Shown: piece by piece, positions 15,954-46,244 of the stretch | How positions within the stretch are numbered: the stretch's first letter is position 1 | Layout: the number at the start of each line of letters is the position of its first letter | Source of the DNA: an uncultured Gammaproteobacteria bacterium | GTDB lineage: Bacteria; Patescibacteriota; Microgenomatia; Levybacterales; UBA12049 | Length of the DNA stretch: 64,000 nt | Direction of reading: 5' to 3' | NCBI GenBank assembly: GCA_964525395.1 | Contig: CAZGGU010000002.1 | Location: 30,263-94,262, forward strand | Program-made: the position numbers and the translations under genes | The notes under the pieces: model-generated | Database searches by the model: none | Seen by the model: the letters and a program-made list of their open reading frames with translations, nothing else | What the model was told of the DNA's origin: nothing

Positions 15954-17987
15954 TTAGAAAGTTTTAGTTGCATCATTAATGTTTTGACTAGGTAGAGGTG
16001 ATTCTGGCGCTGATTGAAAGCCAAAATCAACCGGAGCTGATGGTTGATGGGATGCAGGCGGAATGGGTGCAGGTTGGGTTGGGCTTGCAGCCTCAATATT
16101 CAGATTAGGGTTGGTTGTTATTTCTACTTTTTCTTCTTGGGGATGAGATTCGATGGCTGAGCCAAATTGTGATTCCAGTGTATTGTCAGGGCGCTGCTCT
16201 TGTTCTTTAAGTGCTTTTAGTTTGAGAACTTCTTCGGGATTGGAAGTAATAAGTTCATGTTCAAATGGCGCAGCCAAAACCTTCATGGCCACATGACTTT
16301 GGCCAGCGAAGAATAATCCTTCACCGATGTTGGCAGAGAGCAAGAGTTGTTTTTCTTGTTCGGAAAGATAGAAAATATTTGATACCAAATCAATCTGCGT
16401 TGGGCTTTGTTTCAGCAGCATTTGAATAGATGAGTTTGAAAGTACAGCCTTGCCGTAATCATTGGACAAAAAGTCCTGAACATCCTGTGTTGCAGTAGTT
16501 AGAGCAAGGTAATATTTACGAGCTCGCTTAGCAATTCCGTGTACAAAAGAAGCTGAATCTTGATACTTCATTAAATACCATGCCTCATCTAAGACTAGTA
16601 GGCGTTTTTTAAGATCTTTTCTTACCTTGGTCCAAATAAAATCAAGAATGATATGCATTGCCACAGGACGTAGTTGATCTTCAAGTCCTTGCGTTGAGAA
16701 AATAGTCAAAGGATTTTTAATATCAAAGTTAGACTGCTGATTAAATATTCCAGCCATGCTGCCTTTAATAAATTTCTCAAGCCTGAGAGCCAAGTCTCTA
16801 GCAATAGGATCTTCTGTGCCAAGCAAGACCTTGTATAAATCTTCCATAAGGGGTGGTTCTTTAGTTTGCGTTGAAGGATCAGGGGTAATTCCTTTTTGAC
16901 GATAGGTTTCCACTAGCGCGCGGTCAAGAATGGCGTCATGTTGTGCGTCAATGTCTCCCAAAACAATCCTGAGTAGGGCGTGCAGAGACAGGATTTTTAG
17001 TCCTAGTTCGTTTTCCCCCTCTTCGTATCTTCCTGAAAGATCAAAAGGATTAATCTTAATAGGTGAGGCTGGGGTAAACTCTACATATTCTCCTCCCATA
17101 GCTCGCGTAAGCTCTCCATACTCGCCTTCAGGGTCAATAACGATAACCTCTGTACCAAACATAAACTGCCTCATGATTTCTAGCTTGATCAAATAAGATT
17201 TTCCAGATCCTGACTTTCCGAATACTACCTCATTGCCGTTCTCAAGAGAATATCGATCAAAGACTATTAATGAGCCATTGAGTTGATTAATGCCATACAT
17301 GACGCCCTTATCTTGAGTAAGTGTGGCTGATGTGAAGGGAAAGGTGGATGCAAGACTGGTAGTGTCCATATTGCGCGTGAGAAGAAGCTCATCTCGCGCT
17401 AAAGGCACAGTGGATTTAAATCCCTCCTCCATCTGTAATGTTGAAGGTTTAGCGGTCAAGAGAATTGAAGCAAGAAGGGTCTTGAGTCTTTTTCCTGCTT
17501 CTTTTAGTTCTTCTAAATCATCAGCAACGAGTGTTACATAGAGGCTAAATTGGAAAAATCTCTCAATACCTTTGGCAAGCTCCTCTTGAACGGCAAGCGC
17601 ATCTTCGAGAGAGGCTTGAACTGTGGGATCCAAAACTTTTCCATCTTCTTCTTGCTTGGAAAGCGTAGCTTCCATTTCAGCGATTTTTCTTCTTAAGTCT
17701 CCCAAAATATCTCCAGATGACTGAGGATAGCAAAACATGGAGATGTTTAGTGATTGATCAAAATCAATTAAAGGCTCTAGCCAATTCGGCGAAACGTATC
17801 TTGGATATCCAACCACGAAAAATGTTTTAAAATATTTTTCTCCGACGCGAATGTGTCCGAAATCGACCTCTACGGATGGGGGAGCGATAATGTCAGTCAC
17901 ACTGTTCATTCCACGCTCGAAATGCTCAAGTGGTTTATTCGTTTTGGTTGGCATTGGAACAACAGGAGCTTTTTTTCGTCCAAACAT
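15954..17987 (-). CDS. virB4: type IV secretion ATPase VirB4/TrbE/PrgJ family (main body)
   Basis: Walker A FGKSGSGKSYLIK, Walker B LLVLDEAWYL, conserved VirB4 N-domain segment HIRVGEKYFKTFFVVGYPRYVSPNWLEPL. Confidence 0.8.
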   Translation of the reverse strand: MFGRKKAPVVPMPTKTNKPLEHFERGMNSVTDIIAPPSVEVDFGHIRVGEKYFKTFFVVGYPRYVSPNWLEPLIDFDQSLNISMFCYPQSSGDILGDLRRKIAEMEATLSKQEEDGKVLDPTVQASLEDALAVQEELAKGIERFFQFSLYVTLVADDLEELKEAGKRLKTLLASILLTAKPSTLQMEEGFKSTVPLARDELLLTRNMDTTSLASTFPFTSATLTQDKGVMYGINQLNGSLIVFDRYSLENGNEVVFGKSGSGKSYLIKLEIMRQFMFGTEVIVIDPEGEYGELTRAMGGEYVEFTPASPIKINPFDLSGRYEEGENELGLKILSLHALLRIVLGDIDAQHDAILDRALVETYRQKGITPDPSTQTKEPPLMEDLYKVLLGTEDPIARDLALRLEKFIKGSMAGIFNQQSNFDIKNPLTIFSTQGLEDQLRPVAMHIILDFIWTKVRKDLKKRLLVLDEAWYLMKYQDSASFVHGIAKRARKYYLALTTATQDVQDFLSNDYGKAVLSNSSIQMLLKQSPTQIDLVSNIFYLSEQEKQLLLSANIGEGLFFAGQSHVAMKVLAAPFEHELITSNPEEVLKLKALKEQEQRPDNTLESQFGSAIESHPQEEKVEITTNPNLNIEAASPTQPAPIPPASHQPSAPVDFGFQSAPESPLPSQNINDATKTF

Positions 17988-18649
17988 TATTTATTTCCTC
18001 CCTTCACAGTTTTTGCTGATACGTATGGATTATGAATTCCGTCGGTAAGGTTAGAGCGTCCAGCTTCTTCATTGAACGATTCATAGTAAAGCTCAATTAG
18101 CTCCTCTTTCTCTAGAACTTTTGACTTAAGGCCAACGCGCTGAAGTTCTTGCATAAGAGAACGTGCTTTTGAGACAAGCATAGGCTTGGCTTCTTTAGCA
18201 AAATCTTCTTTATTTCTAATATTGGTCACTGCTCCTGCGCCCTTTTCCAGAAAAGAATAGGTAAAAACAAGATAAAATTTCTTATCAAGGACTGTTTCTT
18301 TTTGGATAAGGTTGGCTACAAAATCCTTATAGAGAAGGATGTGTTTGGAAAGTAGGGGATTGTTCGTTTTCTTTGACTCTGCGTCTAGAAGATGAACGTA
18401 GGAGCTAATATCAAGCTTTCTGGAAACAATCAGAATCTGAATTGGGTAAGAAAGTGAATTTAGGAAAGAAGCATACGAGAGAATTTTAACTTGCTGCTCC
18501 TCAGGCGACTGCAAAGCGAAGTTGGTAGCGGTAATTTCTAGAACCATGCATGCCTGATTGCCGGGTAAAACCACTACGCTCTCGAATATGTCCTGAATTT
18601 CAATAAAGCGTTGAGTGGTTGTATTTATTTTTTGGGCAGATTTGCTCAT
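17987..18649 (-). CDS. separately encoded VirB4 N-terminal segment (split virB4), translationally coupled
   Basis: VVVLPGNQACMVLEITATNFALQSPEEQQVKILSYASFLNSL matches the first conserved block of the CagE/TrbE/VirB4 N-domain; stop overlaps next start as TAATG at 17985-17989. Confidence 0.5.
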   Translation of the reverse strand: MSKSAQKINTTTQRFIEIQDIFESVVVLPGNQACMVLEITATNFALQSPEEQQVKILSYASFLNSLSYPIQILIVSRKLDISSYVHLLDAESKKTNNPLLSKHILLYKDFVANLIQKETVLDKKFYLVFTYSFLEKGAGAVTNIRNKEDFAKEAKPMLVSKARSLMQELQRVGLKSKVLEKEELIELYYESFNEEAGRSNLTDGIHNPYVSAKTVKGGNK

Positions 18650-19885
18650 TTAGTTAAAAAGCTCCCTCCTAAGCTCTTCCCTTTTATCCACCGAAGTTAC
18701 TTCAATTGGCATAATTGGATGACCGGTTGCTTCGATTTGAACAATGTCGAATTTATTTTCTTCTTTAGGGTCTTCAAAGCTCAGGAAATATTTGCCATTT
18801 GAAACAGAGGTGGCTGAAGCAAATTGACCAAGGCCATTGGTTTTAAATGCTCTGACAGGATTATCTTCTTCGTCTTTTACTTCAACTAATACGTTCTGAA
18901 GTGGATTTCCTCTCGGGTCTTTTACAATTCCAGTGATAAGATTGGGCGCTTCAGGCATGCTAAGAACTCCTGCAGCCTTGGTTTGATTTGGCGCCACTTG
19001 CTTTACTCTTGGTTCCTGAGTTGCTTGAGGTGCTGGAGGGTTGGGCTGGCTCGTTGGCTGAGCAGGAATCACTGGAGGAGTTGAATGATCCTCAAGCTTA
19101 GAGTTGATCTTAAGAACCTCTCGCTCTAGTTCTTCTTTTTGACGAGTTGCTTCAGCAAGCATTTTTTCTAACTCTGCGATTTTTTGATCAGCAGCATCTT
19201 GATTTACGGCTGGAGCGGTTTGCTCAAGTGTTTTGCTTGCCTCAATTTGTTTTTCAAGAATCGCAGTTTCTGCATCTATTTTTTTCTCTGCAGCTTCCAC
19301 TTTTGCCTTTTGCTCTTGGTCTAGTTGATCTTGTTGAGCTTTTTCTTGAGCGGCTCTAGCAAGCTCGTCTGCGCTTGGTTGATTAGGAGTAGGAGCTACT
19401 TGTGCTGGCGCTGGGACTGGAGCTTGAATTGGTTGGATTTGTTGAACAGGTTGAGCTGAGATTTGATTTAATTCAATAGTTTGCATAACGGGAATATTTG
19501 GTGCTTGAACTGGCACGTGTGGCGCAGGCAAGGGGATGACTTGGGGTATCTGCTTCTCGGAAACTGTTTGCTTCTGGGTTTTAGTGATATCTCCACCATC
19601 TTTTCCATAAATATATTTCGTGGGGGAAAGCATGGCTCTGAAAAGATTGATAAACATAGTGTCCATTGGGCGTCCGTCCACGGGAACGAAGGTAAAGATT
19701 ATTCCTATAGTTACAATCACAATTGAGATTGGCCAAGAAATGATGTGAGGAATTGGCAACAGGAAAGAGATAAACCAGCCAATCAAAACGACAACTGCCA
19801 AATACACAAACTGCCTAACGGTCATAGAACCGATAAGCTTAAATTGAAAGCCTGTAATGTCTTGGGGAATTGGGTGATTCTCCAT
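18650..19885 (-). CDS. PrgI/VirB3-like two-TM protein fused to long Pro/Gln-rich coiled-coil and C-terminal globular domain
   Basis: N-term IPQDITGFQFKLIGSMTVRQFVYLAVVVLIGWFISFLL followed by second TM matches PrgI-family topology/motif (P.D...K....T.RQ); central coiled-coil EQKAKVEAAEKKIDAETAILEKQIE. Confidence 0.45.
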   Translation of the reverse strand: MENHPIPQDITGFQFKLIGSMTVRQFVYLAVVVLIGWFISFLLPIPHIISWPISIVIVTIGIIFTFVPVDGRPMDTMFINLFRAMLSPTKYIYGKDGGDITKTQKQTVSEKQIPQVIPLPAPHVPVQAPNIPVMQTIELNQISAQPVQQIQPIQAPVPAPAQVAPTPNQPSADELARAAQEKAQQDQLDQEQKAKVEAAEKKIDAETAILEKQIEASKTLEQTAPAVNQDAADQKIAELEKMLAEATRQKEELEREVLKINSKLEDHSTPPVIPAQPTSQPNPPAPQATQEPRVKQVAPNQTKAAGVLSMPEAPNLITGIVKDPRGNPLQNVLVEVKDEEDNPVRAFKTNGLGQFASATSVSNGKYFLSFEDPKEENKFDIVQIEATGHPIMPIEVTSVDKREELRRELFN

Positions 19886-20013: not shown

Positions 20014-20388
20014 TTATTGAGTGCCCCTGCCTGCTCTAAGGTTAGTCGCGTTGGTAGTTGCATTGCATGATGTAAAGCCAAATTTAGTAATGCAGCCAAC
20101 TCCTGTTATGCCAGCAATAATATTTAAAACAGCGAAGGACATAAGTATAACTATGAGACCGATTAGAGCCCAAGTGATAGTTTTTTTAGCCCCATCTGCT
20201 GCCTTAGGGTCTCCTCCAGAGGTGATATATTTTATTCCGCCAAGAATTACTAAGAAAAGTGCAATTATTCCTGCGAAGGTTAGAGCCCAAAAAATAAGGT
20301 TTTGAAATAGTACAGTTGCACAGTCTAAGGTAAGTATCTCCCCATACTTACTATCAAACGCACAAGCATTACCAGCTAATTTAAACAT
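20014..20388 (-). CDS. VirB2/TrbC-like pilin paralog 3
   Basis: Two hydrophobic helices flanking ILGGIKYITSGGDPKAADGAKKTITWALIGL; shared motif with the two upstream paralogs. Confidence 0.55.
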   Translation of the reverse strand: MFKLAGNACAFDSKYGEILTLDCATVLFQNLIFWALTFAGIIALFLVILGGIKYITSGGDPKAADGAKKTITWALIGLIVILMSFAVLNIIAGITGVGCITKFGFTSCNATTNATNLRAGRGTQ

Positions 20389-20431
20389 AAATTTAGCGTA
20401 ACAAAGAGGGGATTAAATCTCAAGCGGAAGT

Positions 20432-20851
20432 TTAACTGTTGGTGTAATTGGTAAGTGTGGGAAGAGTTAAATTGGTTAAGTTAATTCCGAAAAAGCCAAG
20501 TAAAATGTTCAAGATAAAGAATGACAAGAACATGATTGCGAGACCGATAAGAGCTGCTACAATCATTTGTCTTGATGCATCAACCTTCTTGGAGTCTCCG
20601 CCTGACATTATCCACTGAATTCCTCCAAAAATAAGGAAGCCGAGAGCAATAATTACGCCGATTACGAAAACTACTTGGATAAGGGTAGCCACTATTCCGC
20701 TGAAATCAGAGAGAGTTAATTTACAAAGTCCGCCAAATCCTCCACCAGGGCATACGCTAATTTTTTGTTGAGCATGTGCTTGAGGAGCGAGTGTTAAGAA
20801 TGGTACCGCTGAAAGTGAAATGGCAGTTATCTTTTTCATGTATATAAACAT
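20432..20851 (-). CDS. VirB2/TrbC-like pilin paralog 2 (with cleavable signal peptide)
   Basis: Signal peptide ...LTLAPQAHAQQ; FLIFGGIQWIMSGGDSKKVDASRQMIVAALIGLAIMFLSFFILN. Confidence 0.55.
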   Translation of the reverse strand: MFIYMKKITAISLSAVPFLTLAPQAHAQQKISVCPGGGFGGLCKLTLSDFSGIVATLIQVVFVIGVIIALGFLIFGGIQWIMSGGDSKKVDASRQMIVAALIGLAIMFLSFFILNILLGFFGINLTNLTLPTLTNYTNS

Positions 20852-20887
20852 CGTAGAAATATTTTAAATTCTTGTCAAGGGGTCAAT

Positions 20888-21223
20888 TTATGTGAGCTTT
20901 AAAAGATTGAGTCCGAAGAATCTGCCGACTACATTAATTATGAAAAATGCTAAGAAGGTGATGATAAGGCCAATCGCTGCGAAAGTAATTTTCTTTCTGG
21001 CCCCATCTACAGCTTTCGCATCTCCACCTGATGAAATCCACTGAATCCCGCCCCACATGATGAAAAATAAGGCTGCTAAGACTGCAGCAATAAACATGTA
21101 TGTAATTCCCAAGCGAATTACACCTTGAAGAGTGGGGAGACCAGACTCAGGCATGCCACCAATGGGTTTTAAATCAATTTGTTTGCCGTCACTGGGAACT
21201 TTAAGTGCTATTTCTCTAATCAT
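20888..21223 (-). CDS. VirB2/TrbC-like pilin paralog 1
   Basis: FFIMWGGIQWISSGGDAKAVDGARKKITFAAIGLIITFLAFFIIN; two TM hairpin. Confidence 0.55.
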   Translation of the reverse strand: MIREIALKVPSDGKQIDLKPIGGMPESGLPTLQGVIRLGITYMFIAAVLAALFFIMWGGIQWISSGGDAKAVDGARKKITFAAIGLIITFLAFFIINVVGRFFGLNLLKLT

Positions 21224-21225
21224 AT

Positions 21226-22470
21226 TTAACTAAATCCTGGAAGACCAAGGATATCAACTGTAATTAATCTAAGAATTGAGAGAGAAAAGATGATGAGTAA
21301 AAGTCCTGCAACGGCTGCTATTATGGCTTCTCTTGCTTCTGCTATTTTTTTAGGGTCCCCCTGTGAGGTCATTAGTTTAAATCCATTAGCGATAAAAAGA
21401 ATAATAAGAATTCCACCGGAAAGACTGAGGACGAGAATCAGCACGCTTCTAGCAAAGCCTTCAGGATTAATCCCAATCTTACCTATAGCTGTGTTGCAGG
21501 AGTTTGGAATTGCTTCGCCGGATTTAGGCTGACAGGGATTAGAAACTTTATTGCCCGGGTAGTCATAGCAGCCCAACTTTCCATCTGTGCCTGTGGTGCA
21601 GTATTTGCCACCGCATTCGGAATCATTATTGCAGCCTGAATGACCACCGTTTTGATCCACCGTGAAAGAGTCTGAGCAGTTTGTGTTATATTTGCCATCG
21701 ATCTGGACTTTATATGAGTTTTCTCCTATTAAATCATTTCCTACCGATACTCCCGCCGCTGCCTCGAGTTCACTTCTAGTTGGTGTAAATCTTTTTATCT
21801 CTGATCCATTTTCAGTTCCATTTATTTGAATAATTCTGACAAGCATTTTATCTTCAGGTTTTTCTGTAAACTCCTTTTTAAATGCAGCTTTTATTTTAAC
21901 TTCAGTTCCAGGCTTAAAATCAGTGTTTAGATATGTAATCGTGCAAAACTTATTGTCAACGCTAGTTTTTTGAATTTCCAAAGAGGCGCTTCCTAGGCTG
22001 CAGAGTAGAAAATCTCTGTTTTGACCCTGCTCTCCTTGGTGTCCGGTGGTTCTTAAATTGAATTCATATTTGCCAGGGTTGAAATCTGATGCATGATCCC
22101 CCTTTGTGTTTCCATTTCGATCAAATGGGGTATTAACAGTTGCGAGAGTATCTTCTTCGAATCGTTCCAGCGTCACTTTCGCAGGTACATTTGATTTATA
22201 AAATAAATCTCCAGTATCTTCTCCAATCGTACGAATGTCTCCTCCTTGTGGATTTATTGTCATTTCAATATTTGACGTAAGTGGAATTTGTTGACCCTTT
22301 ATTTTTAAGGTGATGCTATTTATTATATGGTCATCATCTCCTGCAGACTGTTTTTCTGAAATCTTCTGGATAGAACATTCACTTTTAGAATTTTGAGCAT
22401 AAGTAGGCTGAGTGTAAGTTGAAACAATCAGTATTAAAAAGAGTAGGACAGCAAAGATAATTCTTTTCAC
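21226..22470 (-). CDS. secreted Cys-rich extracellular domain fused to C-terminal pilin-like module (candidate minor pilin/tip adhesin)
   Basis: Signal peptide MKRIIFAVLLFLILIVSTYTQPTYA; Cys-rich GCNNDSECGGKYCTTGTDGKLGCYDYPGNKVSNPCQPK; C-terminal ILFIANGFKLMTSQGDPKKIAEAREAIIAAVAGLLLIIF shares the pilin paralog motif. Confidence 0.5.
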   Translation of the reverse strand: MKRIIFAVLLFLILIVSTYTQPTYAQNSKSECSIQKISEKQSAGDDDHIINSITLKIKGQQIPLTSNIEMTINPQGGDIRTIGEDTGDLFYKSNVPAKVTLERFEEDTLATVNTPFDRNGNTKGDHASDFNPGKYEFNLRTTGHQGEQGQNRDFLLCSLGSASLEIQKTSVDNKFCTITYLNTDFKPGTEVKIKAAFKKEFTEKPEDKMLVRIIQINGTENGSEIKRFTPTRSELEAAAGVSVGNDLIGENSYKVQIDGKYNTNCSDSFTVDQNGGHSGCNNDSECGGKYCTTGTDGKLGCYDYPGNKVSNPCQPKSGEAIPNSCNTAIGKIGINPEGFARSVLILVLSLSGGILIILFIANGFKLMTSQGDPKKIAEAREAIIAAVAGLLLIIFSLSILRLITVDILGLPGFS

Positions 22471-22506
22471 AATTTTATCGTAGAAGAAAATGAGATTTTT
22501 GGCAAG

Positions 22507-23814
22507 TTAAGGTGTGAATTTAAAGCCGCGTCCTTTTACAGTTTGCAGATGAAGCGGTGAATTAGGGTTTTCTTCAATTTTTTTCCTAACCCTAAAAATA
22601 AGTTGATCAAGCGCTTGCTCTGAGACCCCAACTGTAGTGCCTAAATCTCCCCAAACTGCAGAGATGATTTCCTCTCTTTCGATTATCTTGTCAGGATTCA
22701 TTAGCAGATAAGCAAGAAGCTTAAATTCAGCAGATGTTAAAGATTCTGAAATAATAATTTTTCCTTTTTTAATTTCTTTAGACTCTTTATTAAAACTAAT
22801 CTTTTGAGTATCTGTCTCATTTTGTTTTTTTGCATAAGACATGAGTAGCGGAAGAGCAAATTTATTATCCCTAACTAATCCTACTGCCACGAGATGTGAA
22901 GAATCGTGAGCTTTGTTTTCCTCGATGAGGTTTTGCTCAAATGGAGTAAAATATTTCCAAATTTCTTCCAAAACTGCCTTGATTCTGCTGTTTGAAAATA
23001 AAGATTTTTCTAAATTTTCTTGTTCACCGTTTTCTAGACAAGCCTCAGCTGCTACTCTGGTTAGTTTTCCTACGCCTCCAGTTAAATTCGTGACTGTCTC
23101 GAGTGTTTGCTCTGAAAGTTTTTTATTCGCTTGTTTTTGAATATAATTTAACCTGAAATCTAAAACTGCCTTATTCATCAGCGGCAAATATACTATATTT
23201 CCTACTACGAATTCGTAATAATCAGCAATTAAATCATTTTCTACTATTTCTTCGAGTGGGCGAGAGAGAGGAAAGATAGCAGAGAAGCGATATTTAGCTC
23301 TGTCTCTAAGAACCCTAAGATTGCTAAAAAATTGTGGCGTAAGCATTGGGAGATATTCCTCAAAGCGATCGAAGAGAAAAACAACTGTATATTCTTTTTC
23401 AAGTGACAGATAATCAATAGATTTTCGCAGTCCTTGAAACAGAACTAGTTCATCGTTGGTTTTGAGGCTTTGTTCGAAAAGTCCACGAATATATTTAGAT
23501 TCTTCTTCCAGATGGCGTTCTTCAAAAGAATCAAGTAGCTCAAGAAACATATACTTGGTAGCCTCAGTTAATGGTCGTTTTTTAATTTCAGAGAAATTCA
23601 TCATGACGAAGTGAAACCATTTTTCGTTTTCCTTGAGGTGAAGAGTTCTGGCTTCGCGATTGTAGGAAAGAAGTCCCATGATGTTGGATCTTCCTACGCC
23701 TGGAAGAGAAACGATTTGCGCAGAATTTCCAGATTTTATATATGAGAGGACTTTATCAATTTCATCAAACCATGAATCTGGGGGATATAGAGATTCGAAA
23801 TGTTTAGGATCCAT
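22507..23814 (-). CDS. transcriptional regulator: N-terminal P-loop/STAND-like NTPase domain + C-terminal OmpR/PhoB-type winged-helix DNA-binding domain
   Basis: C-term LTSAEFKLLAYLLMNPDKIIEREEIISAVWGDLGTTVGVSEQALDQLIFRVRKKIEENPNSPLHLQTVKGRGFKF = trans_reg_C wHTH; N-term SLPGVGRSNIMG (degenerate Walker A) and VVFLFDRFEE (Walker B-like). Confidence 0.55.
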   Translation of the reverse strand: MDPKHFESLYPPDSWFDEIDKVLSYIKSGNSAQIVSLPGVGRSNIMGLLSYNREARTLHLKENEKWFHFVMMNFSEIKKRPLTEATKYMFLELLDSFEERHLEEESKYIRGLFEQSLKTNDELVLFQGLRKSIDYLSLEKEYTVVFLFDRFEEYLPMLTPQFFSNLRVLRDRAKYRFSAIFPLSRPLEEIVENDLIADYYEFVVGNIVYLPLMNKAVLDFRLNYIQKQANKKLSEQTLETVTNLTGGVGKLTRVAAEACLENGEQENLEKSLFSNSRIKAVLEEIWKYFTPFEQNLIEENKAHDSSHLVAVGLVRDNKFALPLLMSYAKKQNETDTQKISFNKESKEIKKGKIIISESLTSAEFKLLAYLLMNPDKIIEREEIISAVWGDLGTTVGVSEQALDQLIFRVRKKIEENPNSPLHLQTVKGRGFKFTP

Positions 23815-23914
23815 TAAAACATTGTAATCTAACTAGCCTCAAAACGTCAATTTTATAAGGCTTTTGTAATGTAGATATCAAGTCTATAGTTTGATTTTTC
23901 CTTAAACTACGCAC

Positions 23915-26900
23915 ATGGAAAGAGAAGCTTTCACGCCAGAAGAATTGACAGGACAAGGCCAAAACGCCTATTCTAGAAGTATGCCAGAAACACCTGATAA
24001 TCCTATTAAAGGTCCTGAACAAATACCGCCTCAAAGAGTAAAAAGACCACATTCAGAAGTTAACCCATCGTCAATTGAAGAAAGAATTCAGCAAATGGCG
24101 GAGGAATATCGAGGAAAAGGAATTCCTGTAGATTTTGGCACTCTCCAAGCTTTTAGAGCTCTTGCAGAAAGAGGAATTATGCCAATGGGTGGAGGCGCAG
24201 ACGATCCCGATGGGGGACCTGCGGGGGGAAGAAGACGAAGAAGAGCGGGAGCAGATGGAGTGCCGCCAATTCCACTAGATGAACAAATTAATGCATTTGC
24301 AGAAGCGAATGGGCTTAGTCCTGAAACCGACCGTGCTTATATTCTTAACGCGTTGGACCGTCAAAGAGCAGATGATGAGAGAAGAGCTGCTAGAGCTCAA
24401 GGGGCAGAGGGGTGGAGAACTATGTATCTTAAGGATCAGGACATGGAAATTTTGAACAGAAATCCCATGGAGTGGATCGAGGAAAAGTTTAATGAAATAA
24501 ATGCTCTTGCTAAGAAAGGAGCAGAACTTGATTCTCCTGCGCTTCAGCGTATTCAAACACTTTTCGGAGAAGCGCATGAGTACGTAGCTAATTTTAAGAA
24601 AAATGATCCTGAGCTAGTTCAGCAATTTACTGATGTATTTTTAGGAAGACTTAACTTAATGTTTATGGCTTCCACTATTGAGCTACGAGATTTAGAGTCT
24701 GCAGGGAAAATGGCAAGAAGAACAAAAGCTTCTACTCTATTTAGTGCGATGGAATATGAAGATGGAAAAGTAGGAATGCTCTATAACAGAATGCAAACTA
24801 TGTATGAAGATTACAGATTGGCTATCGGAGGAGTAGATAGAAAAATATTACCCGAGTTTGAATCTCGATTCCAGCAATTTATTATAGACGGAGAAATGAA
24901 GATGGCGAAGAGAGGGGTAGGTGAATATGCGGCCAAATATGCAGAAATAACGGCTATTGTTAATGGGCAAGGATTGTCAGAAAGACAAAGAGTAATACTT
25001 GGGAAGATGGGAATAAATCCCGATGATCCTATTCAGGCTACCCCAGAAAAGCTAGAAGAAGCAAGACAAGCTGAGATAAATGACAGAATTGAGCTAGATA
25101 TTAGAAGAGCAATGGGACCTGCTTGGGATATTTTCCGTATAACCCAGCGTCATGCGGTTATTAATGCTAGAGCGCATAAAACAAATTCTAGAGATGTTAA
25201 GAAATTGGCTGGAGGTTGGAAGGAGTTTTTAGGTCAGAATGGTGCTGCTTTTGCTTCATTTAACGCGGAAAATATGCTCTGGGAGGAATATGGCCTCTAT
25301 ACTGGTCATGATTGGGCTTTTGTAAGAGAAATTAAGCGTGATCTGGCAACTTCAGAGATAGCAGATAGGCTCAAAAATATTAAGAAAAAAAGAGCTAAAT
25401 TAAATGCTGGTGAAGATCCAGATAAAGATGATCATCATGTAAGCGATGAGGATGAAGGAGAAGAGGATCATCATGTTCTTCATGATGAACATCCAGAAAC
25501 ACCTGAACAAAGAAATGTTAGATTTGCGGAAATACGTAGACAGCTTCAAATTGAAGAGAATATTTTACGCAACATGACACAAGCAGATGTGGATGAGTTT
25601 GGAAAGACGCTCTTTAGAGATATGTATGCAGCTGCTGATTTTTACTCCTCTGGGTGGAGAATGAACGGTATCTTAGATCAGCTTGACAAGTATGGAAATT
25701 ATTTAAATTCTCAGGATGGGGTGGATCCACATCATCCAGTATTTGATTCCAAAAATTTCGGAATGTTTGTTCGATTAAGGGCAGATGCAGGTGGTAGAAG
25801 AGATACCTGGGAAAGAATTGCCACATTTCGACAGGAGGAAATATTAAGGCTTTACAGAGATAAAATTCTGACAGAGCCTAGCCCACAGTACGATAGCCAT
25901 GGTCATAAAATTAAGGCAAAAAAGCCAGCGCCAGATTATATGAAGCCGTCGCTTGATTTATTCTTCGGTAAGCTTAGAGAAATGGGAATAACTACTGACG
26001 ATTTACCTGCAGAATTAAAAGATGCTCAAACAACTGAATACGATGTATTTAAATTAAGGTATGGAGCAGCGATTCAAACTATTCGCCAGCAGGAGATGGA
26101 GGCTAGGGGAAATGGAGTACCGCGTCAAATAGACTTTTCTGCAATTGAGGTAGGATCAGATGACTATGTAAGATTTAAAGAAATAATTGATAATTCAGTG
26201 GGAAAGGAAGGAGCAATTGATGATGTCATAAGAGTTTACAAGGAAATGAATAGATTCATTGGACGTAGGGATGCTATTGGTTTTGAACCCAAGGTGATTG
26301 ATAGGCTTATTTATGATCCCAAGTTTGCGGATATTTACACGAGAGTGATAACAGCAGATGATATCCTTTCAACAAAGATTGAAGGACCCTCATCGCCTAT
26401 AACTTCTCTTACTCAAAGTGTTTCCGTAGATCAGGCAACTGACGCACTTGTTAGAAATTTTAATGATTTAGGCCATGCGGGAAATGCAATGGGTGGACTT
26501 TTGACGTTCGTTAAAGAAGAGCACGAAGAACCTAGATTAAAGGCAGCGCTTGAATTCGCTGAAGAAGCAAGCATGTATGGAGGGCAGGATGCTAGAGCTA
26601 AGAATGTAAGATTTACTTTTGGAACTTATCTTAATCTAGCGAAGAAAGATTGGCTTTGGGACACAATGGATTTTGAGTCAGGGCCTGCAAGAAAAGCGAT
26701 TTCAAATGCACAGAAAATATATGGGCCACAGTTGAAGGCTAAATCAAGAGCAGAATTAAGACATGAATTAGATGAAATTAGATATAAGCTCGAGGGCGCC
26801 TTTGGAGGACACCTCGGTGATAAATATTATAGAGAGCTTGAGCATATGCTTGAGGTAACTAGTGGAGATTCTAATAAGATGAGATTTATGTCATTCATGA

Positions 26901-27028
26901 TTGTTTTAATTGCAGCAGCTCTTGTAACACCAGTTGGAGTTTCTAAAGATAGCTTTAATGATGTTGGAGGACTTCTCGCAGGTGGTGGGGGCGGCGGCGG
27001 TGGTGGTGGGGGCGGAGGCCATCATTAA
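23915..27028 (+). CDS. 1037-aa hydrophilic, charged/coiled-coil protein, tail-anchored (single C-terminal TM) with C-terminal poly-Gly-HH tail; unknown function
   Basis: No signal peptide; only hydrophobic segment FMSFMIVLIAAALVTPVGV near C-terminus followed by GGGGGGGGGGGGGHH; locally GC-rich 5' region encoding GGGADDPDGGPAGGRRRRRAGADG. Confidence 0.5.
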   Translation: MEREAFTPEELTGQGQNAYSRSMPETPDNPIKGPEQIPPQRVKRPHSEVNPSSIEERIQQMAEEYRGKGIPVDFGTLQAFRALAERGIMPMGGGADDPDGGPAGGRRRRRAGADGVPPIPLDEQINAFAEANGLSPETDRAYILNALDRQRADDERRAARAQGAEGWRTMYLKDQDMEILNRNPMEWIEEKFNEINALAKKGAELDSPALQRIQTLFGEAHEYVANFKKNDPELVQQFTDVFLGRLNLMFMASTIELRDLESAGKMARRTKASTLFSAMEYEDGKVGMLYNRMQTMYEDYRLAIGGVDRKILPEFESRFQQFIIDGEMKMAKRGVGEYAAKYAEITAIVNGQGLSERQRVILGKMGINPDDPIQATPEKLEEARQAEINDRIELDIRRAMGPAWDIFRITQRHAVINARAHKTNSRDVKKLAGGWKEFLGQNGAAFASFNAENMLWEEYGLYTGHDWAFVREIKRDLATSEIADRLKNIKKKRAKLNAGEDPDKDDHHVSDEDEGEEDHHVLHDEHPETPEQRNVRFAEIRRQLQIEENILRNMTQADVDEFGKTLFRDMYAAADFYSSGWRMNGILDQLDKYGNYLNSQDGVDPHHPVFDSKNFGMFVRLRADAGGRRDTWERIATFRQEEILRLYRDKILTEPSPQYDSHGHKIKAKKPAPDYMKPSLDLFFGKLREMGITTDDLPAELKDAQTTEYDVFKLRYGAAIQTIRQQEMEARGNGVPRQIDFSAIEVGSDDYVRFKEIIDNSVGKEGAIDDVIRVYKEMNRFIGRRDAIGFEPKVIDRLIYDPKFADIYTRVITADDILSTKIEGPSSPITSLTQSVSVDQATDALVRNFNDLGHAGNAMGGLLTFVKEEHEEPRLKAALEFAEEASMYGGQDARAKNVRFTFGTYLNLAKKDWLWDTMDFESGPARKAISNAQKIYGPQLKAKSRAELRHELDEIRYKLEGAFGGHLGDKYYRELEHMLEVTSGDSNKMRFMSFMIVLIAAALVTPVGVSKDSFNDVGGLLAGGGGGGGGGGGGGHH

Positions 27029-27053: not shown

Positions 27054-28625
27054 TTAATGGCCACTACCGTACGGTTTCGTAAATCCTGAATATATCATTG
27101 CCTTCGCAAGAATATTAGTTCCTTTTCCACCTCCATGTTGAGCATGTACGTTCCTTGCCCATGTGTCAGCTGCAGTCTTTGGAATTCCTAAGTATTTTCC
27201 GCCAACTCCGAGTGGTCCCATAATATTTCCAAAATTAACACCTGGAGCTTTGAACGCATCTTTAGTGGTGGTTAAGACATTTGGTAGCATTAAAATAAAT
27301 CCAAGACCAACTATTGCCCCGATTGCTTCGGTATTCGTTCCGCCAACCAGTGGGGGAACGAATCTCGTTACAGAGTCGCCATTAAAGGATTCAATGAAGT
27401 AGGAGGCAAGTAGGAAAAAAGCTACAGCTACTGGATAAACGGCTAAATTGGCTAAAAGATCTTTAATCCATACTCCTATCCCAGCTTTGGAGCCTGGCAT
27501 AACTCCAGCGATAATCCAAAATGGAGCAAAAATAATATCAAGAATTAAGTTTACATAGGCAACAACGAGTACGACCCAAACCCTAAATAAACAGACAACT
27601 ACCGCAATGGCAATAATTAAAAATGCTAGGATGTTTACAATCACACCAACTACGCCACCAATTATATTTCCCACAATATCTCCATTGCCGAAGTTAGAAG
27701 ATGGACCAGTAAAGACTGATTTGATAACTTCAGCAAAAGCAGATGATACTTGTCCTGCGATTCCCAGTATTCCGCCATTTTCACTAAAAGCGGCATTAGC
27801 TGCATTAAAAGGATTAGAGGCTCCCACGACTGCATTAGCAGCTTCAGGAGACACTACAGTTGAGGTAGCGCTTTGGATGACAAAAGCAAAAAGGTAGGTA
27901 GCTACGAACATGATATCAATGAGTAATCCGGCGATTGCAAATGAGAAGGTAACTGCAATTATTCCCATAATTATTTTGGGTAATTGATTTTGAATGGTCA
28001 TCACGTCATGTGCGTCAATATGGACCCTAAGCATTATTCCAAGACCGACAACGACGAAGGCGAGAATTAGAATTAAGTAGACAATATTTCTCATAGCCAC
28101 CCACAGTGGAAGAACGGGCTGGAGGCCGCAAAAGCCAACTCCTCTAGAAAGATTTTTACATGGATCAGTATTTTCTTGAGCATAAACTTTATCTCCTACG
28201 CCGAAATTACCTTTAAGATATGCAGTATATTGAGTAAAAGAGGCGGGCGGGGTAAAAGTCATATCAATTGCCTTTCCCATAACGGCGATTAAACCTCCCC
28301 CATTTTCTACATAACCGATTTTACCTGTTTCTGGATTTACACCTAGACACTGTGTGCCTGGTCTGGTTGGGTCCACTCCTGTGAGTTGGCAAGCCATAGC
28401 CGACATGGTTTCGATAAGTAGTATCTGAACTCCATTATGCATGTTCATTTCTACATTCGCTTCAGCATCTAAATTTTCTGTTTGTATATCAGCTTGAGGA
28501 GTAGTGGCCTCAATTTCATCAAGTGTTCCTGGAGTTTGCGCATAGGTTTTATGTGAAATTCCAGCGAAAAGAGCGAGGAATAAAAAGAAAGCAAGAAAAA
28601 ATAATTTCTGGGCAGAAATTCTCAT
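27054..28625 (-). CDS. VirB6/TrbL-like polytopic membrane protein
   Basis: Signal peptide then large periplasmic-type domain, then >=7 hydrophobic helices and Gly-rich C-tail; architecture of VirB6/TrbL/PrgH family; adjacent to T4SS genes. Confidence 0.5.
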   Translation of the reverse strand: MRISAQKLFFLAFFLFLALFAGISHKTYAQTPGTLDEIEATTPQADIQTENLDAEANVEMNMHNGVQILLIETMSAMACQLTGVDPTRPGTQCLGVNPETGKIGYVENGGGLIAVMGKAIDMTFTPPASFTQYTAYLKGNFGVGDKVYAQENTDPCKNLSRGVGFCGLQPVLPLWVAMRNIVYLILILAFVVVGLGIMLRVHIDAHDVMTIQNQLPKIIMGIIAVTFSFAIAGLLIDIMFVATYLFAFVIQSATSTVVSPEAANAVVGASNPFNAANAAFSENGGILGIAGQVSSAFAEVIKSVFTGPSSNFGNGDIVGNIIGGVVGVIVNILAFLIIAIAVVVCLFRVWVVLVVAYVNLILDIIFAPFWIIAGVMPGSKAGIGVWIKDLLANLAVYPVAVAFFLLASYFIESFNGDSVTRFVPPLVGGTNTEAIGAIVGLGFILMLPNVLTTTKDAFKAPGVNFGNIMGPLGVGGKYLGIPKTAADTWARNVHAQHGGGKGTNILAKAMIYSGFTKPYGSGH

Positions 28626-28694: not shown

Positions 28695-28781
28695 GGAGAG
28701 GTCGCATAGTGGTCTAGTGCGGATGTCTTGAAAACATCTGTGGGTGCAAGCCTACCGCGAGTTCGAATCTCGCTCTCTCCG
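28695..28781 (+). tRNA. tRNA-Ser (anticodon UGA), type II long variable arm
   Basis: Acceptor GGAGAGG/TCTCTCC, D-arm GCA-TAGTGGTCTAG-TGC, anticodon stem GATGT/ACATC with loop CTTGAAA, T-arm GCGAG-TTCGAAT-CTCGC. Confidence 0.85.
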
Positions 28782-28815
28782 CATATAGCGAGATGAGAAG
28801 TTTATGGTGAGCTTG

Positions 28816-28843
28816 TCGAATCCAAATCTCGCTCTCTCCGCAC
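28816..28843 (+). repeat. direct repeat of the tRNA-Ser 3' end (tcgaatc..atctcgctctctccgca), att-like remnant
   Basis: 17-nt perfect repeat of 28767-28783 at 28827-28843 plus upstream tcgaatc; also hairpin atctcgct/agcgagat at 28767-28790. Confidence 0.6.
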
Positions 28844-29567: not shown

Positions 29568-29684
29568 ATGTTTATATTATATCAATAAATAAGCTTATAA
29601 GATAATTTTTGTAATCTTTTTATAAAGTTAATATCAAGCCTCATTAATCTTTAAGAGCTAAACTACGCTTAGAAAGGAGAAGAT

Positions 29685-29903
29685 ATGTATCCCAAAGAAG
29701 GACAAATAAAAATTCAGGAAGCATTAGCAGAAGCAGAGCAGATTGTGTTTGAAGAGCAATATACAGCTGCTCAGGAAGAAGCAGAAGAAGCTGAGCTTGA
29801 GCAAAGACTTATGGAAGTAGAATTAGCAGCAGCAGCGCAGGAAGAAGCAGAGAGACAAGCTGAGATTACTCAAGAAAAAATTGCAGAAGTTGTAGGAGTG
29901 TAA
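29685..29903 (+). CDS. small highly acidic coiled-coil protein (72 aa)
   Basis: ORF with RBS-like aggagaag upstream; E/A/Q-rich. Confidence 0.3.
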   Translation: MYPKEGQIKIQEALAEAEQIVFEEQYTAAQEEAEEAELEQRLMEVELAAAAQEEAERQAEITQEKIAEVVGV

Positions 29904-29904
29904 C

Positions 29905-30237
29905 ATGAAAGAATTAAAAGACTTAATGAAAGATGTCGAGCGAGATCTTTTAATAGGAATAGTGATCTCAGTAAAACATAAACGATTGACTCTAAAAGAG
30001 TCAGAGAAAATTGCGAAAGAGTTTATAGAGGAAAAAACGGAAGATTATGAAAAACTTTTCAAAAAACTCTTTGAAATGGGTAAGAAATATAAAATAGTCA
30101 GAAAAATTTATGTTAAATATGCGCCGGAATATGAATATATGAAAAAAGAAAGGGACTTAAAAATTATGAGAAATTACATAGAAGAAAAAGATTATGAATC
30201 TGCCATTGAATTCGTGAAAGGAAACTATGGATACTAA
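29905..30237 (+). CDS. small K/E-rich hypothetical protein (110 aa)
   Basis: ORF immediately following previous (2-nt gap). Confidence 0.3.
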   Translation: MKELKDLMKDVERDLLIGIVISVKHKRLTLKESEKIAKEFIEEKTEDYEKLFKKLFEMGKKYKIVRKIYVKYAPEYEYMKKERDLKIMRNYIEEKDYESAIEFVKGNYGY

Positions 30238-30745
30238 TTTTGAGTCAACAACTCAAACTATTTCATCTCAGCCACCAGTTATCGAGCCCATTGAGGCTGG
30301 GGATTTAGACCTCCCAGTGATTGATAAGAAGGGAGACTCTCTGAGAATTACCTCTCAAGCACTTGAAGATTTTGAAGCCGAAGGGGAATCAATTATGAGT
30401 ATTCCGGGCTCACCTCATGAAAAACTTGCAGCATTAGCAGGAGGGAATATAATGCTCGAAGAGTTAAGAAAGGGAGGGAGTAAAAAAGAAAATAAAACAG
30501 ACAAAGCTCAAGAACTCAGCTTAGAGGAAAGAGTGTTAAAACTCCAAGAGGAGTTATTAAAATTGATGATTGCCAGAATGAAAGCAGAGAAAAAAGATCC
30601 TAAGAAAGAAGACGAAATTTATAAAAAACTGAAAAAACTTCTAGAGGAGGCAGAAGGGGAAGGTAAGGCTAATATTCTTCAGTCGCTCATGAATATCACA
30701 TTTATGCTTTATATGATTTCGAATGAAAATTCTTCAAGAGCTTAA
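30227..30745 (+). CDS. hypothetical protein (172 aa), acidic N-half, K/E coiled-coil, hydrophobic C-terminus
   Basis: ORF overlapping previous by 11 nt; C-term ILQSLMNITFMLYMIS. Confidence 0.3.
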   Translation: MDTNFESTTQTISSQPPVIEPIEAGDLDLPVIDKKGDSLRITSQALEDFEAEGESIMSIPGSPHEKLAALAGGNIMLEELRKGGSKKENKTDKAQELSLEERVLKLQEELLKLMIARMKAEKKDPKKEDEIYKKLKKLLEEAEGEGKANILQSLMNITFMLYMISNENSSRA

Positions 30746-31339: not shown

Positions 31340-32425
31340 TTAAAAGGTAATTCTTTCACAAGAGAGATGTGGGATAAGAACAATCATGTGGAAGAATCTC
31401 ACAGGAGTGTAGTTTAATTGGCATCTAAAGATTGGTCCATGAACTATTACTTTTGGAGTAGGTGTAGGAATTCCAGGGGTTGGGGAAAGTGTAACTGTAG
31501 GAGTCATGGTTGGTGAAGTAGTAGGCGTGGAAGTTGGACTTACGCTTGGCATGTTGGTAGGGGAAACAGTCGGAGAATTACTTGGCATAGGGCTCATGGT
31601 TGGAGAAGCAGATGGCTCGTTTGATGGGGTTGGAGAAGCAGTAGCTGAAGGATTTACGCTAGGAGTCATGGTTGGTGATGCGCTTGGAGTAATAGTGGGC
31701 ATTGGGGTGGCAGTAGCTCCACCGGGAGTTTCAGTTCCTGATGCTTTATTCTGAGACTGTGTAAGAACTCTAACTACGAAATCATTAATGTTATTTTCTG
31801 TGTCTTCGCCATTTCCATTAGCTTCATCAGGTCCCCCAAAAGCCATAGTTGAAGTAGTAGAGCTTGCATTAGCTTTTCTTTCTACGCTTTGTCCTGGTTC
31901 AGGGTTGGTGAGAGGATTTCCCTCGCCAAGAGTATTAATGACAGTTCCAAAGGTTACTGCATCTACGAGTGCGCCAGTATCGATTGCCCCATCTCTTAGG
32001 CCGATACTGTTATTGTCTGCAATTGTTGCGCTTGTAGCCCTGTCGCAGGAAAGAGTAGCAACGAGATCATTATTGCACCAAAGAAAATATCCGTTGGCTG
32101 GTATTACATCACCGTCATTAAAAGCAACTATGCTGTCGTCAGCATCTCCAGTAGAAGACCTTTTTACTAGTCGATATTCTTTGAGGTCAACGTCTGAAGC
32201 GGTAGGATTATAAAGTTCTATGAAGTCATGGGTTGATGCGCCATCTTCTCCTGTTTGAACTTCTGAAATTACTACATGATTAGCAGTAGCAGCAGAAGCG
32301 AAATGGGATTTTTGAAAGAAAAGAAAACCTACGAAGAGAATTATGAAGATTCCTAGAAAAGCTGGCAGTAGTCTTTTCATTACTTTATGTATAATCCTAT
32401 TTTTCAGCTCTGTCAACTGAGTCAA
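31340..32425 (-). CDS. secreted/anchored protein with lamin-tail domain (LTD) and long Pro/Thr/Ser-rich repeat linker
   Basis: N-term TM; [38 protein letters not shown] matches LTD signature; 31440-31760 encodes SPT(M/V)xPS-type repeats. Confidence 0.55.
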
Positions 32426-46167: not shown

Positions 46168-46244
46168 ATTTTTAATGAGCAGGGGAAGATTACACGGAGA
46201 TTATACAAGATTGCGATTTTTTTGGGAAGAGGGGAGTTTAAAAT

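Follow-up and report, generated by a model that had tools for sequence, protein, structure and literature searches.

A candidate STAND-type winged-helix regulator and a conserved promoter cassette at a type IV secretion-like locus of Patescibacteria

Introduction

The DNA analysed here, referred to as the window, is a stretch of 64 000 nucleotides (nt) from contig CAZGGU010000002.1 (GenBank assembly GCA_964525395.1) of a bacterium that GTDB places in the Patescibacteriota, a group of ultra-small bacteria, class Microgenomatia. It carries a gene for a protein of 435 amino acids (aa), here called the regulator, in which an N-terminal NTPase-type module is joined to a C-terminal OmpR/PhoB-type winged helix–turn–helix (wHTH) domain. 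The gene stands between a very long, divergently oriented open reading frame (the giant ORF) and the genes of a type IV secretion system (T4SS)-like locus. Sequence comparison makes it reasonably likely that the regulator is a locus-specific transcription factor of the STAND/AAA+ switch type, which would activate two promoters that share a conserved cassette of TTGTAA repeats and would repress its own promoter. The conserved cassette is newly described here.

A T4SS-like cluster of VirB4, TrsD, PrgI/VirB3 and arrays of VirB2-like pilins has been described near dnaA in Patescibacteria (Quinonero-Coronel et al., 2025; PMC12102498), and the window carries this set near dnaA, with VirB4, a TrsD-like gene, PrgI/VirB3 and a VirB2-like pilin array. 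The system is widespread in Patescibacteria and, in work cited in PMC12102498, has been reported to be essential for the epibiotic growth of a cultured Saccharimonadia strain; the text of that paper makes no mention of the regulator, the giant divergent ORF or the cassette. A literature search on Patescibacteria together with winged helices and type IV secretion found nothing. To our knowledge, nothing is known about the regulation of the T4SS-like system, or of almost any gene, in these bacteria.

The interest of the locus lies in its being a host-interaction apparatus in bacteria that have not yet been grown alone. The present analysis yields a conserved candidate regulator, a 60-nt candidate operator/promoter that occurs twice in the window and two predicted target genes, and the resulting hypothesis lends itself to tests in vitro or in a heterologous host, the organism itself being uncultured. 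If it is true, these would be the first regulator, operator and regulon defined for the host-interaction apparatus of these uncultured epibionts.

Domain structure of the regulator

The original prediction, made from the letters of the sequence alone, had described an NTPase–wHTH protein, and this observation was confirmed. Both motifs of the NTPase-type domain, SLPGVGRSN (aa 36–44) and VVFLFDRFEE (aa 144–153), are present in the 435-aa ORF, and the predicted OmpR/PhoB-type wHTH was recovered with Pfam as Trans_reg_C (PF00486) at aa 358–433 (67.1 bits against a cut-off of 26.2; E 1.4e-18). The winged-helix fold of the C-terminus can be superposed on solved effector domains. Sequence searches of the PDB with the protein or its profile gave matches to the wHTH alone, and the response-regulator models of NCBIfam cover only aa ~328–435, with scores far under their cut-offs. 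As had been predicted, Pfam found no Response_reg match in the regulator, i.e. no CheY-like receiver domain with a phospho-acceptor Asp. The protein is not a two-component response regulator, and its N-terminus is predicted from modelling to fold as a P-loop NTPase. In public annotation, near relatives carry no fuller name than 'winged helix-turn-helix domain-containing protein [Candidatus Levybacteria bacterium]'.

Searching the PDB with a profile of the N-terminal domain gave no relative of solved structure. The known structures listed for this domain by structure comparison are the archaeal Walker-type ATPase PABY2304 (2qen; 17.4), a plant NLR NB-ARC module (9h2l; 15.4), SSO1545 (2fna; 14.6), CED-4 (14.6), BrxC (14.3), archaeal ORC2 (1w5s; 14.3) and MalT (8bob_D; 11.9), and the top ranks in Foldseek were taken by Orc4, 2qen, Cdc6 and CED-4. 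From these matches, the modelled N-terminal module is assigned to the STAND/ORC–Cdc6 branch of AAA+, with a nucleotide-binding domain, a helical lid and a winged helix.

The P-loop of this module is deviant. The canonical Walker A pattern GxxxxGK[ST] does not occur in the window protein, and Arg replaces the Walker A Lys in 119 of 120 near homologues; G39, G41, R42, S43, N44 and the Walker B residue D149 are invariant in its clade, which is of the Levybacteria type. After the next strand, in the motif LSRPL, R185 is at least 90% conserved at the position of the sensor-1 Arg; the STAND roles of the Walker B and sensor-1 motifs are presumed from their position and from general knowledge. In P-loop proteins, hydrolysis is usually abolished by a change from Lys to Arg, while nucleotides are still bound to some extent. 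As its pocket is strictly conserved, the module with the Arg P-loop may still bind something. Deeper-branching, pilin-adjacent members of the family (L004, L005, L006 and L162; the prefix L denotes related loci) retain Lys, which places the Lys-to-Arg change later than the linkage of the family to the T4SS locus.

A sensor role, also proposed originally, is conjectural. No sensor-repeat domain (TPR, WD40, LRR or SUPR) was matched in the regulator, the AlphaFold2 model ends with the wHTH and shows no extra domain, and the Walker A Lys is lost to Arg.

Conserved position of the regulator gene

A metagenome scan with patterns from the N-terminal domain gave 80 further loci, and of 80 distinct regulator genes 56 had sufficient flanking sequence for synteny to be judged. 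In 55 of these 56 loci the regulator lies between a fast-evolving ORF of ~1000 aa and a VirB2-like pilin array, and the predicted link to the pilin/T4SS module is upheld to this extent. The array is downstream on the same strand in 47 loci, upstream and divergent in eight and missing in one; in the eight exceptions the regulator gene alone is inverted, its place between the giant ORF and the pilins being unchanged. The position of the regulator is conserved and its co-orientation with the pilins is not. This place survives many insertions and inversions across the loci.

The gene order on two long contigs that encode homologues, L001 and L003, is an unknown protein of ~540–590 aa, a divergent unknown of ~915–940 aa, the regulator, four pilins and PrgI; L001 continues with a TrsD-like gene and VirB4 and has dnaN–dnaA at the end of the locus. 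In the window, dnaN and dnaA likewise stand directly past the T4SS genes, 10–12 kb from the regulator, and the window is thus chromosomal and near the replication origin.

The TTGTAA cassette

The region between the regulator and the giant ORF is exactly 100 nt long, as had been predicted. In the direction of the giant ORF, this region contains a cassette of two or three units [TTGTAAn-N4] with an 11-bp period, followed by (A/T)TATCAAGC, N19, TAAACT, N4–9 and ATG. The cassette was found before the giant ORF, with fixed phasing, in 44 of 76 non-identical loci when at most one mismatch per repeat was allowed, and its information content is concentrated in the repeats, TATCAAGC and TAAACT, with little in between. 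If ATG 23915 is taken as the transcription start, the two proximal repeats span about −62 to −41, and positions −35 to −30 read AAGTCT, which is not −35-like. Tandem hexameric direct repeats spaced by 10–11 bp and abutting a (poor) −35 element are the usual layout for activators of the OmpR/PhoB family (PhoB, OmpR, CpxR with GTAAA-N5-GTAAA, ArcA and KdpE). The TTGTAA repeats and the regulator's recognition helix (GVTDQALDQLIFRLRKKIE) are conserved to the same degree, and since both are near-invariant, covariation between helix and repeats could not be used.

On the strand of the regulator, most related loci have TTGATA-N17-TACAAT-N6-ATG, which would be a good sigma70-type promoter for the regulator, and the TTGTAA repeats form its spacer and −10 element. 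The divergent region of the window has about 40 extra bases in comparison with the related loci, and the regulator's TTGACG-N18-TACAAT overlaps the third repeat. Loci with an inverted regulator separate the two strands: in L007, L116, L130, L131 and L145 the cassette is still found before the giant ORF, just after the stop codon of the regulator, and in L007, L116, L130 and L131 its reverse strand faces no gene while the repeats are retained. The repeats are therefore tied to the promoter of the giant ORF and not to that of the regulator alone.

The 30-nt cassette pattern has two matches in the 64 kb of the window (at 23853 and 29609) against 0.06 expected, and TATCAAG-N-TAAAYT occurs only at the same two places. 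The second copy shares the N19 spacing and TAAACTACGC with the first. A pattern with a 5-nt gap before TATCAAG had given no matches, the actual gap being 6 nt, and loose dyad matches at 46190 and 56759 were rejected as further cassettes, neither having TATCAAGC or TAAACT. The search for direct repeats that the original prediction had proposed for 23815–23914 and for the regions upstream of the pilin genes was thus successful in the former and not in the latter: neither TTGTAA dyads nor the cassette were found near the pilin, prgI or virB4 genes of the window and the related loci. The repeats that were found belong to the promoter of the giant ORF and to the second promoter at 29609.

Predicted target genes

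The giant ORF has no match in Pfam and is fast-evolving, a word-based search for homologues giving only two matches. Its C-terminus has a hydrophobic segment at about aa 989–1007, followed in the window copy by a Gly13-His2 tail; such a segment is found in many members. Downstream of the cassette, related loci contain TTGACA-N17-TA[ACG][AG]CT, a leader with GGAG (Shine–Dalgarno) and a second ATG. The Leu-Thr codons of this stretch are TTG ACA in all examined loci but one (TTG ACT in L124), and the stretch contains a stop codon in one locus and a frameshift in another; the conservation of these signals is therefore one of DNA sequence. A seemingly conserved N-terminal peptide, '..ELT..GDIFM', was accordingly re-read as DNA signals (the TTGACA −35 element, the −10 element, the Shine–Dalgarno sequence and the second ATG). 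At least 33 of 40 loci nevertheless keep an open reading frame from the first ATG through to the second, in frame with it. The giant ORF may thus have two starts and yield two isoforms, of which the longer, leaderless one would come from the cassette promoter.

On its reverse strand, the second cassette points towards tRNA-Arg and tRNA-Ser. Second cassettes were found at the equivalent position in L120, L153 and L154; those of L120 and L153 lie about 4.8 kb upstream of the regulator and precede Ala/Glu-rich proteins of ~340 aa with a C-terminal hydrophobic tail. The 172-aa ORF behind the second cassette of the window also ends in such a tail and is weakly similar to these proteins (E 5e-4). 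Given these C-terminal tails, the targets of both cassettes look tail-anchored in their predicted sequences. The proteins behind the second cassette in the window, L120 and L153 are acidic as well as Ala/Glu-rich, and coiled-coil-like.

Promoter-like sites of the pilin genes

The original prediction had placed the regulator as the first gene of the pilin/T4SS transcription unit. The adjacency stands; the shared unit is put in question by the regulator's inversion in eight loci and by sites that the pilin genes appear to have of their own. Besides the site TTGCCA-N17-TACGAT in the gap before the first pilin, the window has the sigma70-like sites TTGACA-N17-TACGAT, 10 nt from ATG 20838, and TTGAGA-N17-TACGCT, 6 nt from ATG 20388. 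Across the loci, promoter-like sites were found in 128 of 173 upstream regions of pilin genes against 29 after shuffling, and in 47 of the 128 exactly 6 nt separate the end of the −10 element from the start codon. Should the sites be real, each pilin gene would be transcribed by itself, as a leaderless or near-leaderless mRNA, and the regulator would not be needed at the head of an operon. As no terminator was predicted in the gap before the first pilin gene, transcription may also read through from the regulator. At 22470–22505, and at equivalent sites in L003, L094, L100 and L112, the GTG start of the first pilin gene lies exactly 6 nt after a −10-like hexamer, and a leaderless GTG start would be unusual.

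Table 1. Features of the regulator locus. Positions are those of the window; promoter and operator assignments are predictions.
Feature	Position	Strand	Remarks
Regulator coding sequence	22507..23814	−	435 aa, NTPase + wHTH; starts at ATG
Predicted AAA+/STAND-ORC-type module	22810..23814	−	aa 1–335; nucleotide-binding domain, helical lid, winged helix
Deviant Walker A, SLPGVGRSN	23683..23709	−	Arg42 where Lys is canonical
Walker B, VVFLFDRFEE	23356..23385	−	Asp149 invariant; NACHT-like D-x-h-[DE]-E pattern
OmpR/PhoB-type wHTH	22516..22743	−	aa 358–433; recognition helix GVSEQALDQLIFRVRKKIE near-invariant across the clade
Third TTGTAA	23822–23827		overlaps −10 of the regulator on the other strand
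Regulator promoter-like site, TTGACG-N18-TACAAT	23821..23850	−	6 nt to ATG; leaderless if real
Two direct repeats, TTATAAGGCTT + TTGTAATGTAG	23853..23874	+	11-bp period; candidate operator
Cassette core, ATATCAAGT-N19-TAAACT	23875..23908	+	conserved, faces giant ORF; ATG 23915 is 6 nt after −10
Giant ORF	23915..27028	+	predicted target; 1037 aa from ATG 23915, 1015 aa from ATG 23981
Second, consensus-like promoter, TTGACA-N18-TATTCT-N6-ATG(23981)	23945..23983	+	within the giant ORF as annotated, at its 5' end
Second cassette, TTGTAATCTTT TTATAAAGTTA ATATCAAGC-N19-TAAACT	29609..29664	+	then leader with AGGAG and ATG 29685
Three small ORFs	29685..30745	+	72, 110 and 172 aa, no Pfam matches; behind second cassette
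Promoter-like site, TTGCCA-N17-TACGAT	22477..22505	−	6 nt to GTG 22470; in the 36-nt gap between regulator stop and first pilin
Four T4SS_pilin (VirB2-like) genes	20014..22470	−	414, 111, 139 and 124 aa; same strand as regulator, after it
PrgI/VirB3-family gene, TrsD-like gene (VirB4 N-terminal homologue), VirB4 ATPase	15954..19885	−	
Conserved 523-aa protein	27054..28625	−	convergent with giant ORF; syntenic in most loci

The wider protein family

A profile search with the N-terminal domain of the regulator alone retrieved 1151 clusters (50% identity) at E ≤ 1e-3 and 579 at E ≤ 1e-10, the members being mostly 430–470 aa long. Pfam matched Trans_reg_C in 82 of 84 family representatives, nSTAND1 in 37, AAA_16 in 38 and NACHT in ten. 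On the strength of the 1151 clusters and the 82 representatives with Trans_reg_C, proteins that combine an nSTAND1-like NTPase with a C-terminal OmpR-type wHTH are a large, uncharacterized family, as judged by sequence. The AAA_16 or NB-ARC domain that the original prediction had suggested searching for was found in this wider family, as AAA_16, and not in the window protein. The Walker A motif of the wider family is canonical (GxxGxGKSN), with Lys in 57 of the 84 representatives and Ile in another subgroup. In a third subfamily (P0188, P0204, P0208 and others), with GMKRVGISNFL and FLLRFDRL, the positions of the Walker A Lys and the Walker B Asp are both altered, which suggests a second, independent loss of NTPase activity. 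Some other family members carry TIR, kinase or TCAD9 domains.

A scan of contigs with wHTH peptides as patterns returned mostly unrelated response regulators, the usable loci being L004–L008, L011 and L016. The nSTAND1/AAA_16 + Trans_reg_C proteins of Chloroflexi among these (L011, Ardenticatenaceae; L016, Caldilineaceae) are homologous to the regulator over their full length and have the same two-part architecture and the same size, at 25–26% identity (tblastn E 3e-27; profile E about 1e-28 to 1e-21). They differ from it in retaining the canonical GxxGxGKS P-loop and in their surroundings, since they stand behind GAF-HATPase and REC-TCAD9-SIR2/CHAT genes, whereas the regulator stands beside a T4SS-like locus. 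In both loci (L011, 2297–11314; L016, 2385–11020) the homologue comes third, after a GAF-HATPase protein of 1600–1700 aa and a REC-TCAD9-(SIR2 or CHAT) protein, a layout like that of conflict systems.

Proposed mechanism and alternatives

In the mechanism proposed here, two or more wHTH domains, joined through self-association of the NTPase module, would bind the TTGTAA repeats head to tail, the module supplying the di- or oligomerization that the phosphorylated receiver supplies in response regulators. The bound regulator would recruit RNA polymerase to the weak, −35-less cassette promoters in the manner of OmpR/PhoB. On the opposite strand, the repeat DNA makes up the spacer and −10 element of the regulator's own promoter, so that its occupancy would repress the regulator's synthesis. 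With the Arg P-loop, nucleotide would be bound with little or no hydrolysis, and activity may be set by the nucleotide state or by a partner protein instead of by an ATPase cycle. For the pilin and VirB4 genes, the link with the regulator is positional; they lack a cassette-type site and appear to have strong promoters of their own. In a fuller version, put forward only tentatively and rather unlikely, a STAND-derived factor lacking the catalytic Lys would sense nucleotide state or a partner protein. By way of one bidirectional operator, at which it would also turn its own gene off, this factor would activate the genes of two fast-evolving proteins, both apparently tail-anchored, on the flanks of the T4SS-like pilus locus in Patescibacteria of the Microgenomatia type.

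Several points weigh against this mechanism. The N-terminal 342 aa of the regulator gave no NTPase match in Pfam even at E ≤ 10, the regulator's family has no recognizable sensor domain and the module with the Arg P-loop may no longer bind nucleotide. All of the promoters discussed are consensus matches. In most loci the TTGTAA repeats are also the spacer and −10 element of the reverse-strand promoter, which alone would be enough for their conservation there, and only about four inverted loci distinguish an operator from such a promoter. Another DNA-binding protein could be the user of the repeats, and the consensus TTGACA promoter downstream of the cassette means that the giant ORF may need no activator. 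The mechanism is least secure as regards its signal and the direction of regulation.

The original prediction of a dedicated activator of the pilin/T4SS operon, encoded by its first gene and acting through unrecognized sites at the pilin/T4SS promoters, is doubtful. It is favoured by the shared strand, the 36-nt gap lacking a predicted terminator, the adjacency of the pilin array in nearly all informative loci and the non-consensus −10 elements of the pilins (TACGAT and TAGCAT). However, the surroundings of the pilin, prgI and virB4 genes contain no TTGTAA-type dyad in the window or the related loci, the TTGACA-type −35 sites of the pilins directly follow the preceding stop codon and leave no non-coding room for upstream activator sites, and the regulator is inverted relative to the pilins in eight loci. 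Somewhat less probable is an explanation in which the cassette is an ordinary bidirectional promoter, or the site of another factor, and the regulator has its targets and its signal elsewhere and owes its position to history. The coincidence of the repeats with the spacer and −10 element of the reverse promoter in 40 of 46 cassette instances would fit such a promoter, as would the tRNA-Arg and tRNA-Ser genes faced by the reverse strand of the second cassette; on the other side stand the persistence of the repeats in L007, L116, L130 and L131, where the reverse promoter drives nothing, a third in-phase repeat beyond the −10 element of the reverse promoter, the restriction of the cassette to two copies in 64 kb, both at this locus, and the place that the regulator keeps through many insertions and inversions.

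The Chloroflexi relatives in their three-gene GAF-histidine-kinase and REC-TCAD9-SIR2/CHAT operons, the TIR, kinase or TCAD9 domains of other family members and the definition of nSTAND1 as a STAND clade of counter-invader systems (PMC8195603) raise the question of whether the regulator is a conflict or defence STAND sensor rather than a housekeeping regulator of the secretion locus. This is improbable: PADLOC found nothing relevant for the regulator or its neighbours, neither an effector or sensor domain nor conflict-type partner genes were seen in the window or about 80 related loci, and the chromosomal position beside dnaA–dnaN-proximal core genes is fixed. The least credible reading is that of an ORC/Cdc6-like DNA-binding ATPase that serves replication or DNA handling near oriC, or DNA processing as an accessory T4SS factor. 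Orc4, Cdc6 and ORC1 are the best Foldseek matches, dnaA and dnaN are close by and the T4SS-like locus has no nearby relaxase or coupling protein (PMC12102498), but the domain that would bind DNA is of the typical OmpR/PhoB effector type, it is the giant ORF and the pilins, rather than dnaA, that are conserved as neighbours, and a motor or loader role is at odds with the Arg P-loop.

Other features of the locus

VirB4 is split into a TrsD-like N-terminal protein (17987–18649) and an ATPase (15954–17987) with overlapping stop and start codons, which matches the description in PMC12102498. In L001 (11333–12219) and also in L002, a DUF6922/AbiEii toxin–antitoxin pair lies between the regulator and the first pilin gene. 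A gene of ~120 aa for a 23S_rRNA_IVP protein (PF05635, bAvd-like) has been inserted repeatedly between the TTGTAA cassette and the regulator, or just past the regulator (L001, 9582–9962; L130, 7373–7735; L145, 7331–7702; about 16 further loci), and is absent in the window; it is followed by short tandem repeats (CTAGTTGCTAGT..., TTTTGA...).

At the edge of the module, a lamin-tail-domain protein with a long Pro/Thr/Ser-rich repeat region (31340–32425) stands beside a conserved NUDIX gene. An Rfam scan gave only three tRNAs above threshold. The 3' end of tRNA-Ser (28695–28782) at 28758–28783 is repeated 59 nt downstream at 28817–28842 with 88% identity, and this repeat looks like the attachment-site scar of a departed integrated element. 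The contigs of L004, L006 and L007, which carry loci of the Patescibacteria type, are publicly labelled 'uncultured Gammaproteobacteria', and that of L005 'uncultured Bacteriovorax sp.'; these labels are probably binning or labelling errors.

Comparison with known systems

The regulator differs from each of the regulator types that it resembles. PhoB, OmpR, KdpE, CpxR and VicR have a receiver with a phospho-acceptor, whereas the regulator has neither, and its dimerization would come from the NTPase module. MalT, the LAL family and GutR carry a LuxR-type HTH and a sensor arm (SUPR/TPR), in contrast to the OmpR/PhoB-type winged helix and absent sensor arm of the regulator, which is also much shorter, at 435 aa, than STAND activators of the MalT type and has Arg instead of the Walker A Lys. 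The archaeal Walker-type ATPases PABY2304 (2qen) and SSO1545 (2fna), of Pfam ATPase_2, have no OmpR-type domain and no sequence-level match to the regulator.

In the AfsR/SARP-type STAND regulators of actinomycetes, a STAND ATPase is joined to an OmpR-type winged helix, and these proteins bind direct repeats spaced by ~11 bp beside the −35 element. Their wHTH and BTAD domains are N-terminal, whereas the wHTH of the regulator is C-terminal and is accompanied by neither BTAD nor a TPR sensor; Pfam found no NB-ARC or BTAD match in it. By analogy, the regulator may work in principle as MalT or AfsR do, while lying outside the response regulators, outside the SARPs on account of its reversed domain order and lack of BTAD, and outside the canonical STAND proteins on account of its missing Walker A Lys and sensor arm. 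It would represent a natural STAND/AAA+ switch in which a module with an Arg P-loop is fused to an OmpR-type domain, an architecture unlike that of MalT or AfsR.

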